This document shows positions 3,871-42,442 of a stretch of 64,000 bases of DNA, piece after piece. Source of the DNA: a virus (taxonomy: Duplodnaviria > Caudoviricetes); IMG/VR virus record IMGVR_UViG_2925514151_000008, positions 8,203 through 72,202 of that record; one strand, given 5' to 3'. Numbering within the stretch: the stretch's first letter is position 1; each line of letters opens with the position of its first letter. The notes beneath the pieces were generated by a model. That model did no database searches and was not told the origin of the DNA. It saw only the letters and a list, made by a program, of their open reading frames with translations. A program made the translations under genes and the position numbers.

Positions 3871-5240
3871 ACACGACCAGCGAAGGGGAAATGCTGGTGG
3901 ATGAGGCCGAACTCCCAATCACCAGAAGCCAGTACTGTGATGCTCTGGATGCATTACGTGCTGCACCTGCCCACTATCTCAAGGAGGTGGGCGACCAGTG
4001 GAGAACGCCCGATCTGTTGTTCTGGGGGGTTAACGCTATGTATGGCCCACTGGTGCTGGAGCTCTTTGCAGACGAAAGCAACGCAAAATGCCCTGCGTGG
4101 TACTCAGCAGAAGACAATGCCCTGACGCAGGACTGGGCGGGGCGACTGATAGAACTCGGCGGCGCGGCATTTGGAAATCCGCCGTATAGCCGTTCTCAGT
4201 ATCACGAAAAGCAGGCGATCACAGGCATGACCCACATCATGAGTTATGCATCCGCTCAGCGCGAAAATGGCGGTCGTTATGTCTTTCTGGTGAAGTCAGC
4301 GACGAGTGAGACGTGGTGGCCAGTAGATGCGGATCATGTCTGTTTTATCCGCGGTCGCATCGGTTTCGATCTTCCTACCTGGTTTAAGCCGGCGGACGAT
4401 AAGCAGAAGCCGACCAGTGCCTTCTTTGCCGGGGCGATTGTTGTATTTGATAAGTCATGGCGAGGGGAGCGCTTTAGCTATATCGATCGTGTGGCTCTTG
4501 AAGCCAAGGGGCGCGCGAGTATGGCCCTGGCCCAATACGCCGTGGGTAAACAGGCAACAGCTCCAGTAATGGATCAGCCTCAGACAGAGCAAGCTGAAAC
4601 TGAAATCCCACTTCTTCAGGACGAAATCCTCGCGAAAAGCGGCATACGATCCTTGGCCTGCGTGGTTGCGGCTTTTGGAGATAAAGCCGAGTACACCTTT
4701 GCCGAGTCGAAGTTTGGTCATACCTGGGCGGCTGATTCAGTGGATAAACCGGAGTTTACGCCGGTTAACTCAGAAACGATCGCCACAGCTCAATCCCTGA
4801 TCATCAAACAAACAGCGAAACAAGCGCTGGTGGGCTGGCTTAACGGTGTTGATCTTGGATCCACAATTGCACGTGAAGAAACCATAGAACGTATGAATTC
4901 GGTGTATGCAGAGTTTGTCGACACATGCCCGGTAACTGAGTTCATCGATATTGTCGGCAGCCTGGATAAAGCAAGCTGATTCAACAGCAGACTGATCCGC
5001 ACTCATGTTCGGGAAGCTCTCTCAGTTGCTAAACAGGTCTTACCCGAAAGCCGGATATGGCCACTGGAAGTAGGCCTGGTGTTTGAGCGAGTCGAAGGCG
5101 TGCACCATCTTAACGAGTCTCAGCAAAACAAACTGAAAGCACACATCAATCAGCTGTGGCTTGAGCGTACGCCCAGTACCGAAATCATAACTATTGCCAG
5201 CGGGCTGGTCAGCAGCATGCAGGGGGTTAGCCATGCGTGA
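3858..5240 (+). pseudogene. Phage N6-adenine methyltransferase (Dam family) with internal stop at 4977-4979
   Basis: DQWRTP, NPPYS, IRGRIGF motifs; frame stays open 86 codons past TGA 4977-4979 to TGA 5238-5240, which overlaps the next ATG. Confidence 0.75.
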
Positions 5241-35618: not shown

Positions 35619-37580
35619 ATGGCCGAACTTAACCCGCCTTTGGGAACGACGACGCCTGAAATATTCCTGGATAACGTCAAGCGCGCTGACGAACTGGTGA
35701 ACGGTCCGGCCGGAACGATTAACGATCGCGGCGGTGAACCACTCGATACCTGGCGCCAGATGATGGCGAAAAACGATGAGATCAGGCAGAACCTGATCCC
35801 TCTCAGTAAGCAGTACATGACGATTGAGGCTGCGCAGGCGGATATCGCGAATATTCCTGCAGGTTCAACAACTTATGTCCGCAGTCAGGACGGAAGCTCT
35901 CTGGCCGATGAGTATATCAACCTCGCTGGAACGCTGCAGCCAACCGGACGGCGGATGGTTCGTGACGACTACGGATACCAGGTATCGCCAGACAGCGTGA
36001 CCCTGGCAGCATATGATCCGGAGACTTCCCGCGTGGCTCCATTTTTAAATACAAGCGGCAGATTAATTCAAATCGGTCCTGACGGAAAATATTACGAAGT
36101 GCTGACGCCGCAAGAGGCTGAGCTATATGCGCTCGGGACTGAGGGACCGGTACCGCAATTTATCGGCGGTGAAAAAGTGTGGCGGATGACGGTTGATTCA
36201 ACCACAAAACAGATCGTTGAAGCCTATACAGTTGGTGGAAAACACTGGATTTACTCAGACGGTGGCCTGGTAGCTGTTAATAACGGAAATGGCGGTGGCG
36301 GTGGCGACGATAATGCCAACCAGCTCCCTCAGTATAGCCTGCATCTGTCAGGGTCTACGGTATATCCGTACTCAGAGACAGTACCTGTGTGTTTTATTTT
36401 TGTAACTGCTGGGCAGTCCAACGCACGTGGTTATTGCCCTGACGCCGATCAAACTATTGTCGCGGCAACGCCCGTTTATCCTGATAACGCTTTCATGCTC
36501 AGCGGCGGGGTTAGGCGCACAGGGACACGCAGCACTACTCTGGTGCCGCTGGTTGAGGCAGTAAGTGGGACAGATAAGGAGACTGCAGCATCTGGGCTTG
36601 CGAATACATTCATTCGCGATATGGCTGCAGCTACCGGCGTCATGCCGCGCACGCTATCAATCGTCTGTGCTCAGTCTGGACAGGCTTACGAGTACCAGAA
36701 ACGCGGTAATGCCGTGTACCAATACATGCTGGACTCAATCGAGGACTGCGTAACGGCCTGTAAAGCACGCGGCTGGCTGCCGATTGTTCTCTGCGTTGAC
36801 TGGATGCAGGGAGAGTCCGACGAGGACTGGTCAGGATTACGAGAAGGAATGTATGAATCACGGATGAGGCAGTACCAGAGACAAATCACCAGCGACATCA
36901 TCGCAAGAACGGGTCAAAACGAACCGCCGATTATCGCCATTACCCAGCTGGGGTATGTCAATGACGGGCATGGTGCATTTACAGGCCAGTACACGCGACT
37001 GGCGTCGACGCGATTGCACGGAAAAGAGCAATTCAGGCTGGTCAATAGTTTGTACCAGTACGATTTTATTTCAGACGGTCTGCACTTGACGTGTGCGGGC
37101 CAGAACCGGCGCGGAGCAGCTGTGGCGAGAGCGCTTATCCAGGAGTGGTTTACGAGCGGCTGGTACGGCATGGTTCCGACAAGTTTCGTGTGGAACTCAC
37201 CAACGCAGATACAGATCAATGTCCCAGCGTATACGAACCTGGTGCTGGACACGACTACGATCAACACCTCCGGTCTGGCCAATTACGGCTTTAGCTACAC
37301 GGATGAATCGGCGTCACCCCCTGCCATTTCGAGCGTCGCGATTAGCTCTGACGGCAAGGGAGTATTGATTAACCTGGCGTCTGCTCCTACTGGCCGTTTT
37401 GGACGGGTTTCCTACGCAACCGTCGAAAATGCAATCCAGAGTGGGGCTACTGTGAAACCGTCTGGTAGGACCTTGGGCGCACGAGGGTGTGTAAGATCTT
37501 CTGCCGGAATCACGTGGGTATACGATACATCTGTAACCCTCTACGACTGGCTCCCCGCTTTTCGGATTAACGTTTTCTGA
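35619..37580 (+). CDS. Tailspike/fiber with SGNH (SASA-type) acetylesterase domain
   Basis: Anchor MAELNPPLGTTTPEIFLDN; catalytic blocks AGQSNA, WMQGESD, DGLH. Confidence 0.85.
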   Translation: MAELNPPLGTTTPEIFLDNVKRADELVNGPAGTINDRGGEPLDTWRQMMAKNDEIRQNLIPLSKQYMTIEAAQADIANIPAGSTTYVRSQDGSSLADEYINLAGTLQPTGRRMVRDDYGYQVSPDSVTLAAYDPETSRVAPFLNTSGRLIQIGPDGKYYEVLTPQEAELYALGTEGPVPQFIGGEKVWRMTVDSTTKQIVEAYTVGGKHWIYSDGGLVAVNNGNGGGGGDDNANQLPQYSLHLSGSTVYPYSETVPVCFIFVTAGQSNARGYCPDADQTIVAATPVYPDNAFMLSGGVRRTGTRSTTLVPLVEAVSGTDKETAASGLANTFIRDMAAATGVMPRTLSIVCAQSGQAYEYQKRGNAVYQYMLDSIEDCVTACKARGWLPIVLCVDWMQGESDEDWSGLREGMYESRMRQYQRQITSDIIARTGQNEPPIIAITQLGYVNDGHGAFTGQYTRLASTRLHGKEQFRLVNSLYQYDFISDGLHLTCAGQNRRGAAVARALIQEWFTSGWYGMVPTSFVWNSPTQIQINVPAYTNLVLDTTTINTSGLANYGFSYTDESASPPAISSVAISSDGKGVLINLASAPTGRFGRVSYATVENAIQSGATVKPSGRTLGARGCVRSSAGITWVYDTSVTLYDWLPAFRINVF

Positions 37581-38783: not shown

Positions 38784-38825
38784 TTGATCTGTCGCTTTGC
38801 TAAAACTACTGTATATAAAAACAGT
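38784..38825 (+). promoter_or_regulatory. SOS promoter with LexA box (umuD promoter)
   Basis: TTGATC 38784-38789, 17 bp, TACTGT 38807-38812 (sulA-like layout); CTGTATATAAAAACAG 38809-38824. Confidence 0.9.
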
Positions 38826-40734
38826 GTGCGCCGGGAGACCGGTAGAGATCAAGGGGTGAAAGTCCCCGACCATTGAAGGACCAGCAATCCACAAGGTCCC
38901 CGAGTCATGCGTTGCATACCGCGAGGTATGGGGCGAAGCGTTGACAGGGGTGTTGACAGGCCAGCCATTGAGCCACGAAATCTATATTAAATTACCGGGT
39001 GCCGACGTTGTACTGTTAACGGAAGGCAACATCATAGGGTGCAATACTGCGAGTGCCACATGGACCCGGCGGGGTCTGAGACCCTGGCATGTCAATACGA
39101 TCTCTACGCGGGAACCGGGAGATCTCCCCTCTGACCATCTGCCAGTGTCGGAGATGGCCCGCACCGGGAAGACGAGGAGTCATAGCCGGTGATGTACGGA
39201 GAGGAGAAGTCGGACTCGCTCATAGTAGCGGCGAAGCAGGCGAACAACCCGAAAGGAGCGGAGTCAGTGGAGCGAAGGAGCGGGGCCAAGGGGAACGCGG
39301 AACAGCCACACATGCGCCGGACACAGAGCCGGGAAAGCATGTCACAGAGGCTGTCACGCGTGCGGGAAGCTGCGAAGCAGCGGAAGAAAGAACGGTTTAC
39401 AGCATTGTTCCACCTGCTGACAGTCGAAGCACTGGAAGCCGCATTCCTCTCCCTGAGCAGGAAAGCGGCCGCCGGAGTGGATGGCATCAGGTGGATGGAC
39501 TACGCCGGAAACATGAAGAACAACATAACAGATCTGCACCGGAGGCTACATCAGGGCAGCTACAGGGCGCAGCCCGGCAGGCGTCACTACATCCCAAAAG
39601 CGGATGGAAAACAACGCCCGCTCGGCATCGCCTCGCTGGAGGACAAGATCGTCCAGTATGCGCTGGTGAAAATCCTGAACGCAGTCTATGAAAACGACTT
39701 TATGGGGTTCTCATACGGGTTCAGACCCGGGCGAAGCCAGCACGATGCACTGGACGCACTGGCCACAGGGCTGGTACGCACTAACGTAAACTGGGTACTG
39801 GATGCCGACATCAGTCAGTTCTTTGACAGGGTGAGCCACGAATGGCTGATCAGGTTCACAGAGCATCGGATCGGCGACCGGAGGGTAATCAGGCTCATAC
39901 GTAAGTGGCTCACAGCCGGGACGTCGGAGGAGGGTCAATGGCGAGCAACGGAGGAAGGCACCCCACAGGGTGCGGTCATCTCACCGCTGCTGGCAAACAT
40001 ATACCTCCACTACGTCTTCGATCTGTGGGCGCATCAGTGGCGACGTCGCTATGCCACAGGCAATGTGGTAATGGTCAGATACGCCGATGACATCGTCATC
40101 GGGTTCGACAAACGATACGATGCCCGGCGCTTCCGTATAGCCATGCAGCGCAGACTGAGGGAGTTCGGACTCACGGTTCACCCGGAGAAAACCCGTCTGA
40201 TGGAGTTCGGCCGCTTCGCTGCCGAAAACCGTGCCATCAGGGGAAAAGGCAAACCAGAAACGTTCAACTTCCTCGGGTTCACGCACATCAGCGGGAAAGA
40301 TCGCAACGGCAGGTTCATGCTGATACGAAAGACCCGCCGGGATCGGATGACGGCAACTCTGAAAGCCATCAAAGACGGTCTGCGAAGGCGCTGGCATTAC
40401 TCAATCCCCGAACAGGGAAAATGGCTCAGGAGAGTGGTTCAGGGATACCTGAACTATCACTCGGTACCGGGCAACTTCCCCACCATGCAGAAGTTCAGGA
40501 CACACGTAACAAACCTCTGGCGCCGGGCGCTCAGGCGCAGGAGCCAGAAGGATGATACGACCTGGACGAAAGCAAACAAACTGGCAGCCGCATGGCTACC
40601 AAGGGTTCGGGTTCTTCATCCATGGCCTGTGGAGCGGTTCACCGCCAGACACCCGAGGCAGGAGCCCGGTGCGTAAATCGCGCACGCCGGGATCTGTGCG
40701 GGGGGTATCCGGTAACGGGTATCCCTACCGCGAC
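38826..40734 (+). mobile_element. Complete group II intron (probably bacterial class E)
   Basis: 5' GTGCG at 38826; DV GAGCCCGGTGCG...CACGCCGGGATC 40662-40694; DVI with bulged A 40727; 3' CGAC 40734; removal restores TACTGTATATAAAAACAGT|A. Confidence 0.93.
39189..40676 (+). CDS. ltrA: Group II intron RT/maturase, no HNH domain
   Basis: [37 protein letters not shown]; stop codon falls in the DV loop. Confidence 0.95.
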
Positions 40735-40755
40735 ATTAATCTGAGCGAGTCAATT

Positions 40756-41175
40756 ATGCAGTTTTACACACCCGTTGAGTTACGTGAGATCATGCTGATC
40801 CCGTTGTACAGTGACCTTGTGCAATGTGGTTTTCCAAGCCCCGCACAGGATTACGTTGAGCAACGCATAGACCTGAATGAGTTACTAATCAATCATCCCA
40901 GTGCGACGTATTTTGTCAAAGCCGCCGGCGACAGCATGAAAGACGCCGGCATAGGGGAAGGGGATCTTCTGGTTGTGGATAGCTCAAGGACAGCAGTTCA
41001 TGGCGATATCGTTATTGCTGCTGTGGATGGGGAATTTACCGTTAAGAAGCTGCAGCTGCATCCGCGGGTTCAGCTTAACCCAATGAACTCTGCATATTCG
41101 CCGATAGTCGTGGGTAGCGAGGACACTCTCGACGTGTTCGGGGTGGTTACGTACATCATTAAATCAGCTGGCTAA
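40756..41175 (+). CDS. umuD: UmuD-like Pol V subunit
   Basis: [10 protein letters not shown] cleavage site, GDSM, FTVKKL; ATG 40756, 139 aa. Confidence 0.95.
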
Positions 41176-41176
41176 G

Positions 41177-42442
41177 ATGTTTGCGCTTTGTGATGTGAAT
41201 TCATTTTATGCATCGTGCGAGACCGTATTTCGTCCTGACCTGAAGGGGCGGCCGGTGGTCGTTCTGTCAAACAACGACGGCTGTGTGATCGCCCGTTCGC
41301 AAGAGGCGAAGCCCTTCGTCAAAATGGGCGAGCCTTATTTCAAGCAAAAGGACATGTTTCGCCGGCACGGTATTATCGCGTTTAGCAGCAACTATGAGCT
41401 TTATGCCGATATGTCCAACCGAGTGATGACAACTCTGGAGGAACTCTCTCCACGCTGCGAAATTTACAGTATTGATGAGGCATTTTGCGATCTGACTGGT
41501 GTTCGTAACTGTCGCGATCTTACCGATTTTGGCAGGGAAATTCGTGAGACGGTTCTGCGCAGGACGCACCTCACGGTCGGCGTCGGCATAGCCCAGACTA
41601 AAACCCTGGCAAAACTGGCCAATCATGCTGCGAAACAGTGGCAGCGACAGACCGGAGGAGTGGTGGATCTGTCTAATCTTGAAAGGCAGAGGAAGTTGAT
41701 GGCTTTGCTGCCGGTGGATGAGGTCTGGGGAGTTGGCCGCCGCATAAGTAAAAAACTGGAGGCCATGGGCATCAAAACGGTGCTTCAGCTGGCGGATACC
41801 GATATCCGTTTTATCCGGAAGCATTTTAACGTCGTGCTGGAAAGAACAGTGCGGGAACTGCGTGGTGAACCCTGTCTTGGGCTGGAAGAATTTGCGCCGG
41901 TAAAGCAGGAAATCGTTTGCAGCCGTTCGTTCGGCGGTCGTATCACGGAATACCATGAAATGAGGCAGGCTATATGTTCATACGCATCGCGCGCTGCGGA
42001 GAAACTCCGTGGCGAACATCAGTATTGCAGATTTATTTCCGCTTTTGTCAAAACCAGCCCCTTTGCGCTGAATGAACCGTACTACGGAAACAGTGCATCG
42101 GTAAAATTGCTTACCCCAACCCAGGATAGTCGGGACATAATCACTGCGGCGACAAAATGCCTCGACGCAATCTGGCGAGACGGGCATCGCTATCAGAAAG
42201 CAGGCGTGATGCTTGGGGATTTCTACAGTCAAGGCGTAGCGCAGCTCAACCTCTTCGATGATAACGCACCACGGAAGAACAGCGAAAAGCTCATGGAAGT
42301 ACTCGATCATCTCAATGCAAAGGATGGCAGGGGGACGCTGTATTTTGCAGGGCAGGGGATCCAGACAGCCTGGCGGATGAAGCGAGAAATGCTATCCCCG
42401 CGCTATACTACGAGATTCTGTGACCTGCTCAGAGTCAGGTGA
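41177..42442 (+). CDS. umuC: UmuC-like Y-family polymerase
   Basis: DVNSFYASCE, YSIDEAF, QLNLF clamp motif, LSPRYTT. Confidence 0.96.
   Translation: MFALCDVNSFYASCETVFRPDLKGRPVVVLSNNDGCVIARSQEAKPFVKMGEPYFKQKDMFRRHGIIAFSSNYELYADMSNRVMTTLEELSPRCEIYSIDEAFCDLTGVRNCRDLTDFGREIRETVLRRTHLTVGVGIAQTKTLAKLANHAAKQWQRQTGGVVDLSNLERQRKLMALLPVDEVWGVGRRISKKLEAMGIKTVLQLADTDIRFIRKHFNVVLERTVRELRGEPCLGLEEFAPVKQEIVCSRSFGGRITEYHEMRQAICSYASRAAEKLRGEHQYCRFISAFVKTSPFALNEPYYGNSASVKLLTPTQDSRDIITAATKCLDAIWRDGHRYQKAGVMLGDFYSQGVAQLNLFDDNAPRKNSEKLMEVLDHLNAKDGRGTLYFAGQGIQTAWRMKREMLSPRYTTRFCDLLRVR

Follow-up and report, generated by a model that had tools for sequence, protein, structure and literature searches.

An intron inside the LexA box of a prophage umuDC locus

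The IMG/VR provirus record IMGVR_UViG_2925514151_000008 carries a group II intron inside the LexA (SOS) box that stands ahead of its umuDC genes, and the question that this locus raises is whether the LexA box is itself the address to which such an intron is sent. We studied a 64-kb window of this 72-kb record (the window being the whole stretch of DNA analysed), and we conclude that the natural homing site of this element, the intact, endonuclease-less mobile group II intron Kl.pn.I5, is very probably the LexA operator. Read without the intron, the window box is TACTGTATATAAAAACAGT followed by A, a CTG-N10-CAG palindrome, and the intron ends (GTGCG at 38826-30, GAC at 40732-34) fit the group II rule of GUGYG at the 5' end and AY at the 3' end. 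An empty allele is found in the related Klebsiella phage ST846-OXA48phi9.2 (MK416022.1, locus L273), which has the same flanks with the intron absent and in which TACTGTATATAAAAACAGT runs directly into ATTAATCTGAGCG with zero duplicated bases; because this empty site joins identical flanks directly, both intron boundaries in the window are fixed. The original prediction, made from the letters of the window, had placed an intron of 1909 nucleotides (nt) between box positions 19 and 20 ahead of umuD, and its coordinates, length and insertion point all agree with the sequence and the empty allele. It had further held that the CTG-N10-CAG core stays intact after insertion, as it does, box positions 1-19 being kept at the 5' junction.

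Independent insertions in LexA boxes

Intron copies were pooled from genomes and from metagenome and viral contigs, with the contigs scanned using the first 46 intron bases; copies differing from the window in these bases, most 92% variants among them, lie outside the contig scans and the flank counts. Counting copies whose 5' flank is 25 nt or longer, the pool holds at least 174, with at least 111 distinct 45-nt flanks; sorted by the 25 nt that precede the box, the flanks fall into at least 63 clusters. Among the first genome-contig loci, about a dozen unrelated 5' flanks each ended in CTG-N10-CAGT directly before the intron. Over the whole set, CTG at -17 to -15 together with CAG at -4 to -2 was seen in 52 of the 63 flank clusters, against a random triplet expectation of 1/64, so that the register is more than chance. 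The original prediction had proposed comparing a logo of the flanks with the LexA consensus, and the position matrix of the 63 clusters reproduces that consensus from -19 to -1. Its central proposal, that the intron targets an operator consensus and that SOS boxes form its set of homing sites, is upheld by these 52 independent clusters in register, most insertions lying inside CTG-N10-CAG sites and not outside them.

The occupied boxes stand upstream of SOS-type genes. We found the intron inside the native E. coli umuDC operator beside hlyE (L092), ahead of E. coli sbmC where an ISL3-family element has removed the left box half (L097), and, in CP023932, ahead of a cloacin gene. A scan of ten open reading frames (ORFs) just downstream of insertions returned one Peptidase_S24/UmuD-like, two DinI-like, one GyrI/SbmC-like and one Cloacin product, with no family for four and a sub-threshold integrase match for one. 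The UmuD-, DinI-, GyrI/SbmC-like and cloacin gene types are LexA-controlled. Chromosomal insertions were seen in both E. coli and K. michiganensis; six of the 45 chromosomal places in E. coli were inspected, including one prophage site represented twice, with G at +1 (L095 and L096), and two integrated plasmid segments (L093 and L094), one of them with the intron antisense to a umuD (L094). Of 30 distinct 3' flanks, 27 start with A at +1 and 3 with G. A sense ORF began within 80 nt in 21 of these 30, compared with 45 of 108 5' flanks in a divergent-ORF control, a comparison too crude to claim a sense bias of the insertions.

Such a census could in principle be the echo of a single old insertion ahead of umuD that spread by descent and horizontal transfer, and the commonest flanks are indeed plasmid backbones present in thousands of records. 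We give this one-locus reading a vanishing probability: the 63 flank clusters are unrelated and lead into at least four downstream gene families, chromosomal sites occur in two species, and an empty allele of the window locus exists. The original prediction had named descent from one umuD locus as an outcome that would undo it, and what we found instead, unrelated flanks, several gene families and an empty allele, excludes that outcome.

Pairing of the intron RNA with the right half of the box

To describe how the target is read we use the exon-binding sites of the intron (EBS) and the intron-binding sites of the exons (IBS). The original prediction saw TACTGTT (39011-39017) displayed in a stem-loop, and the Rfam model RF02005 assigns the same hairpin, with a stem of GCC 39001-03/GGC 39025-27 and CGTT 39006-09/AACG 39018-21 and with TACTGTT in the loop. 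EBS1 (ACTGTT, 39012-17) complements AACAGT (38820-25) at every base, and its predicted pairing with IBS1 is sustained by the way in which this loop covaries with the 5' exon in relatives. A loop other than EBS1 at this place was a further outcome that would have undone the original prediction, and the covariation speaks against it. At Kl.pn.I5 sites the bases from -5 to -1 are near-invariant, whereas at -6 both T (42 of the 63 clusters) and A (18) occur. In relatives that occupy other targets, loop and last six 5'-exon bases change together (L027, CTGTTG/CAACAG; L031-37, TGTCAC/GTGACA; L038, CTGACC/GGTCAG; L039, TAAGCG/CGCTTA; and, via wobble, L023, GTTTCC/GGAGAC). Overall, the loop homologous to 39010-17 complements the last six exon bases in the window, L021, L023, L025, L027, L031-37, L038 and L039, with poorer complementarity in L026 and L044.

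One element of the predicted pairing is not supported. T39011 had been matched to the first 3'-exon base; this position is T in all aligned relatives whatever the +1 base is, and the covarying column is 39077, which we assign as EBS3. Bases at 39077 and +1 form Watson-Crick pairs in 13 of 17 comparisons (14 of 17 including wobble), as T/A in three lineages, G/C in the alphaproteobacterial copies and A/T in L022, L023 and L024. For EBS2, runs of complementarity in relatives reach 8 bp in L023 (8 of 500 shuffles as good), 7 bp in L044 (36 of 500) and 7 bp in L021 (51 of 500).

A sister lineage in Betaproteobacteria, at 71% DNA identity, sits in the same kind of site one base further 3', directly after CTG-N10-CAGTA, at five of five junctions (L021, L022 and three Pelomonas contig ends); Pelomonas candidula L020 also belongs to it. 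EBS1 has moved with the insertion point, to TACTGT, and TATTCAG, the EBS2 of this lineage, is complementary to CTGGATA in the left half. Maximum-likelihood analysis of 23 intron proteins, rooted at the midpoint only and leaving out L023, L029 and L066 (stop in the translated range), gave a tree in which the four LexA-box rows form one clade with support 98/95, and more distant relatives occupy other target sites. Because the sister lineage shares the target, the LexA-box habit belongs to a clade and not to a single copy.

A related intron in an alphaproteobacterial metagenome-assembled genome (L031-L037, L071) has at least 8 insertions in that one genome, all after a conserved TTACGGTGAC(A/G), and carries the EBS1 TGTCAC; from these junctions it looks like an intron using a different repeated target.

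A subset of boxes, and the left half-site

Within the LexA boxes, a further requirement is apparent in the spacer, where T at -12, A at -11 and T at -10 (box positions 8-10) occur in 61, 55 and 61 of the 63 clusters. In K. michiganensis G001, three of five perfect-core boxes with this TAT are occupied, compared with none of ten without it (hand count; 10/455 = 0.022). Given this near-invariance and the G001 occupancy, the target is therefore a subset of LexA boxes, and use seems to be confined to those with TAT at positions 8-10. The original prediction of conserved SOS boxes as a genome-wide set of homing sites thus stands for LexA boxes as a class, but not for every box.

In one alternative, a short right-part motif (about TAT-N4-ACAGT followed by A) is the real target and boxes are tolerated survivors, the intron there lying in a repressed leader, in the sense direction, and being spliced. 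Such an account would fit the RNA-pairing information, which covers the right half and spacer only, the sense ORFs behind 21 of 30 distinct 3' flanks, and the non-box insertions L146, L150 and L202. We nevertheless consider it unlikely, since among loose right-part sites (TAT-N4-ACAGTR) in three genomes CTG stands in register in only 23 of 139, versus 52 of the 60 informative insertion clusters, and since seven of the nine clusters without CTG (cut and tandem boxes aside) keep two of the three left-half bases. In addition, copies 99.7-100% identical at dozens of sites point to recent events with little time for purging, and an intron antisense to an SOS gene persists (L094). We interpret the left-half conservation as suggesting a direct reading of that half, by protein or otherwise.

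Two further alternatives would explain the whole palindrome differently. The first is structural recognition, in which the palindromic box extrudes as a single-stranded DNA hairpin and is read as group IIC introns read terminators or attC sites; the target is palindromic, the protein has no detected endonuclease domain, and the intact box does fold, into a hairpin with a 6-bp stem (-2.9 kcal/mol, z -2.58). This stem is weak and A/T-rich, however, and it is IBS1 itself, so that folding would hide the partner bases of EBS1. Furthermore, the insertion point of the sister lineage moves one base exactly with its EBS1 shift, and the complement between its EBS2 and the left half implies an unfolded target, all of which makes hairpin recognition highly improbable. 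In the second, LexA protein would tether the intron particle, so that a box is found via the repressor and not by its DNA sequence. A left half-site conserved with no demonstrated RNA partner in Kl.pn.I5 speaks for tethering, but the 495-aa (amino acid) protein has no domain beyond the reverse transcriptase/maturase, bound LexA would cover the target bases of EBS1, and base-pair covariation already accounts for the exact insertion point; we give tethering hardly any credence.

Returning to the LexA operator as the homing site, several observations weigh against it. A perfect CTG...CAG is missing from 11 of the 63 clusters: six depart from it by a single left-half base (CAG in 2, GTG in 2, ATG in 1, CTT in 1), two are non-box sites (L150, with ATT on the left, and L146, with TCG...TTG), two are boxes cut by an insertion sequence and one is a tandem-intron junction. 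When sites are filtered more strictly, by the spacers seen where the intron is present, CTG stands in about 8 of the 16 that are unoccupied (hand count). The EBS2/IBS2 pairing that the original prediction put forward at 38983-87 and 38813-17 has its EBS2 where that of the relatives lies, but it is weak here, the run of five A/U pairs being equalled by 315 of 500 shuffles. Over 52 boxes, EBS2 pairing on the used strand was better than on the opposite strand in 20, equal in 20 and worse in 12. The Rfam model for domains V and VI (RF00029) did not match the window intron at E up to 1, and a promoter consensus scan made no plus-strand call upstream of the box. We conclude that EBS2 is, on its alignment with relatives, real in this intron class and weak in Kl.pn.I5, and that it does not account for the choice of strand in the palindrome.

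These results can be assembled into a proposed order of events. The excised intron RNA reads the right box half through EBS1, with ACUGU[U] at 39012-17 pairing to ACAGU at -5 to -1, and EBS3 (U39077) pairs with A at +1; because of these two pairings, reverse-splicing would fall between box positions 19 and 20. Through a few A/U pairs with the TATA-rich spacer, EBS2 (38983-87) likely limits targets to boxes with TAT at positions 8-10. Since the protein lacks an endonuclease domain, priming of complementary DNA would probably run via replication forks, as in other endonuclease-less introns.

After insertion: junction, transcription and a link to the SOS response

An occupied box can evidently be entered again, as head-to-tail tandem introns were found in one box in L244 (1098-4920, starts 1909 nt apart) and in L219, where the downstream copy is a sequence variant; on account of these tandems, the 5' junction is still a target after insertion. 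A possible -35 hexamer also lies ahead of the box, with TTGA at offset -42 in 14 of the 63 flank clusters and in at most 3 at any other offset. If TTGATC and the TACTGT of the left box half do form a promoter, transcripts would start inside the box, and the 5' exon would be about six bases long.

Because the CTG-N10-CAG core stays directly upstream of the intron, we would expect the intron to be transcribed from a LexA-repressed promoter and spliced from the leader of the SOS gene. Raw stranded RNA reads from another strain (run X24) cover the intron at a depth of 100-280 in one direction versus 0-19 in the other; the loose ends at the intron belong to several different exons, and the depth on the window flanks is 0. 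The four RNA runs carry the intron at other sites, where the exon-exon joint of the window locus could not appear, and the X24 reads show intron transcription, not splicing.

Taken together, these features allow a tentative and somewhat doubtful proposal of an SOS-coupled cycle. Under it, DNA damage would induce the intron RNA and protein, bare other boxes through loss of LexA, and supply stalled forks for priming, and on the plasmids of clinical Klebsiella and E. coli the intron would rewire, or buffer, genes for error-prone polymerases, bacteriocins and prophage functions and seed recombination homology among these plasmids. Mobility would then be SOS-induced, the time and place of each move of this retroelement being set by the SOS response.

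Identity, spread and activity

By its sequence, the window intron is the catalogued Kl.pn.I5/Se.ma.I1: it is 99.8% identical over 1909 nt to the copy on plasmid CP023932, which passages of PMC6764390 list as Se.ma.I1 / Kl.pn.I5. The same intron goes under the label S.ma.I1 and as the 'retA' or 'ltrA' gene of Klebsiella plasmid backbones. In PLSDB it is present in 4313 of 72,556 plasmid records (3550 at 99% identity or above, 675 at 90-95%), at 4977 plasmid places, and among complete E. coli genomes in 219 of 5426, at 45 chromosomal and 230 plasmid places. Among 401 genomes of the family of K. michiganensis G001, only 4 carry it, with 0 new sites. A plasmid search with the window's 5' flank alone returned 6 weak matches, none close; the locus is a prophage and not a plasmid backbone. 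Passages of PMC8269217 report two new Kl.pn.I5 insertions during one hospital outbreak, and on the basis of these outbreak insertions the intron is active. Being common, and placed before genes for mutagenic polymerase, gyrase inhibitor, DinI and bacteriocins, it may change how clinical strains regulate their SOS response.

The intron itself is thus already catalogued, and what is new is the class of its target, the LexA operator. Leclercq and Cordaux 2012 (PMC3522654) had used three copies to derive a consensus homing site, which they considered to be saturated in K. pneumoniae MGH. The terms SOS, palindrom and umu each have 0 occurrences in the main text of that paper, with Figure 3A and the supplementary tables outside the comparison, and because these terms are absent, the target appears, as far as the main text goes, not to have been recognised as a LexA operator. 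Passages of PMC4471558 and PMC6053426, from the literature on group II introns and umuD, hold nothing bearing on a LexA-box target, and the word 'SOS' occurs 0 times in passages of PMC11783820, from the literature on retA, umuD and IncR. More broadly, no description of a group II intron targeting LexA operators was found in the searchable literature (figures, supplements, the intron database and subscription journals being beyond reach). New here are also the empty allele, EBS3 at 39077, the weak EBS2 of Kl.pn.I5, the TAT-subset rule and the single clade.

Several side observations concern the history of these copies. Nine contigs of about 2-12 kb (L001, L002, L004, L006, L007, L008, L010, L018, L019) carry copies 99.5-100% identical to this enterobacterial intron under the labels Streptomyces, Actinomadura, Kitasatospora, Microbacterium, Pedobacter, Arthrobacter, Flammeovirga, Eggerthellaceae and Haemophilus, with flanks that are enterobacterial plasmid sites, which looks like cross-contamination of those assemblies. 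A given 5' flank is found with different 3' flanks and vice versa (e.g., L088/L094, L093, L164), and such chimeric flanks suggest homologous recombination between intron copies at different boxes, the intron serving as portable homology that reshuffles plasmids. A widespread sub-variant (H41-H45, H96-H109, L088, L094) does not follow the group II 5' consensus in its first five bases and so aligns from intron base 6 only. The L094 copy, which lies antisense to a umuD, has an ORF whose annotation shows an internal stop, and copies of this kind are probably immobile fossils carried by plasmids.

Comparison with known systems

Known homing targets of group II introns are single genes, insertion sequences, terminators and attC sites, and a lineage addressed to the DNA site that a global repressor binds would add a new class of target. 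The nearest habit is that of group IIC introns, which passages of PMC3522654 and PMC3001079 describe at terminators and integron attC sites. Kl.pn.I5 shares with them an endonuclease-less protein, a compact ribozyme and a target drawn from a class of partly palindromic functional DNA motifs. It differs in that it inserts inside a palindrome arm, its IBS1 being the 3' arm of the only hairpin and not a sequence outside the stem, in that its relatives have an EBS2-type pairing of 7-8 bp and its best Rfam model is RF02005, and in having as its target a repressor operator ahead of genes instead of a structure that follows them.

RmInt1 of Sinorhizobium is likewise endonuclease-less and sequence-specific, with EBS1, EBS2 and EBS3 pairing, a few distal positions of the 5' exon that the protein presumably reads, and replication-dependent priming. 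Kl.pn.I5 resembles it in combining EBS pairing with distal 5'-exon positions that the protein may read and in a probable reliance on replication for priming; however, RmInt1 homes to one insertion-sequence site, whereas the Kl.pn.I5 lineage homes to a regulatory motif with many copies per genome, on plasmids, prophages and chromosomes. If the reading offered here is right, this would be a natural case of a mobile element tying both its own expression and the availability of its targets to a stress response, and homing to LexA boxes is directly testable with standard homing assays in laboratory E. coli.

Other mobile elements linked to LexA boxes are the integron integrases (PMC3108266) and ISCR transposases (bioRxiv 10.1101/2025.11.21.689736). 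As passages of those sources have it, a LexA box lies directly upstream of the mobility gene, which should be damage-inducible, as also for Kl.pn.I5. Those elements bring their own box, whereas Kl.pn.I5 gains one by landing, so that the box is its address and likely also its switch.

Features of the intron and its neighbourhood

The RF02005 match to the domain I-IV core of the window intron spans the whole model (positions 1-225 of 225). In the intron-encoded protein, RVT_1 is matched at E 4.6e-47 and TIGR04416 at 376.2 bits against a cutoff of 300 (residues 81-451); an endonuclease domain was not detected in its 495 aa, and neither was any further Pfam family at E up to 10. The last 77 nt of the intron fold into hairpins resembling domains V and VI (40650-40734, -44 kcal/mol, z -3.56); A40727, unpaired in the second of them, is the eighth base counted from the intron 3' end, seven upstream of the last. 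Coordinates are collected in Table 1.

Table 1. Coordinates, in the 64-kb window, of the intron, its target box and the adjoining genes.
Feature	Position	Strand	Evidence or remark
LexA (SOS) box positions 1-19, TACTGTATATAAAAACAGT	38807..38825	.	5'-exon end; whole 20-bp box seen in empty allele L273
Group II intron Kl.pn.I5/Se.ma.I1, 1909 nt, GTGCG...CGCGAC	38826..40734	+	Sequence, Rfam, empty site
First 3'-exon base A = box position 20 = IBS3	40735	+	Sequence and empty allele
IBS1 AACAGT	38820..38825	+	Only ACAGT (-5 to -1) conserved across sites
EBS1 ACTGTT in hairpin loop	39012..39017	+	RF02005 structure; covariation in relatives
EBS3 (T), partner of first 3'-exon base	39077	+	Best covarying column
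Candidate IBS2 ATATA (-13 to -9)	38813..38817	+	Complements 38983-87; weak support
Candidate EBS2 TATAT	38983..38987	+	Homologous columns in relatives complement own 5' exons
Domain I core, Rfam RF02005 (group-II-D1D4-6)	38859..39084	+	184.2 bits vs gathering score 49, E 8.1e-55
Intron-encoded protein, 495 aa, reverse transcriptase/maturase, open ORF	39189..40676	+	RVT_1, TIGR04416
Domain V-like hairpin, AGC 40663-65, 2-nt bulge AC 40684-85	40658..40697	+	Fold
Domain VI-like hairpin, unpaired A at 40727	40698..40731	+	Fold
TTGATC, possible -35 hexamer, 17 nt upstream of TACTGT (left box half, possible -10)	38784..38789	+	Inferred
umuD homologue, gene under the operator	40756..41175	+	Peptidase_S24 E 4.5e-29; ATG at 40756
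umuC homologue (Y-family polymerase)	41177..42442	+	IMS, IMS_C, DUF4113

Three smaller observations concern sequences next to occupied boxes or the window locus. In L097, L135 and L140 an ISL3-family element (annotated ISKox3 in L097:239-1500) ends at one and the same position within the LexA box, leaving only box position 7 onward before the intron; the boxes are of two different kinds, and such an element may also favour the A/T-rich centre of SOS boxes. Right behind the occupied boxes of L112, L233, L237, L240, L216 and L258 are genes for proteins of 79-85 aa that start with MLR(H/Q)SDI... or MPR(N/R)SDI...; no Pfam or NCBIfam model matched this family, which may represent an unnamed SOS-regulated gene of prophages or plasmids. 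Finally, just upstream of the umuDC region, a 653-aa ORF at 35619-37580 on the plus strand carries a SASA (sialate O-acetylesterase-like) domain (E 5.5e-12), and its product may be a tail-fibre or depolymerase-type protein.

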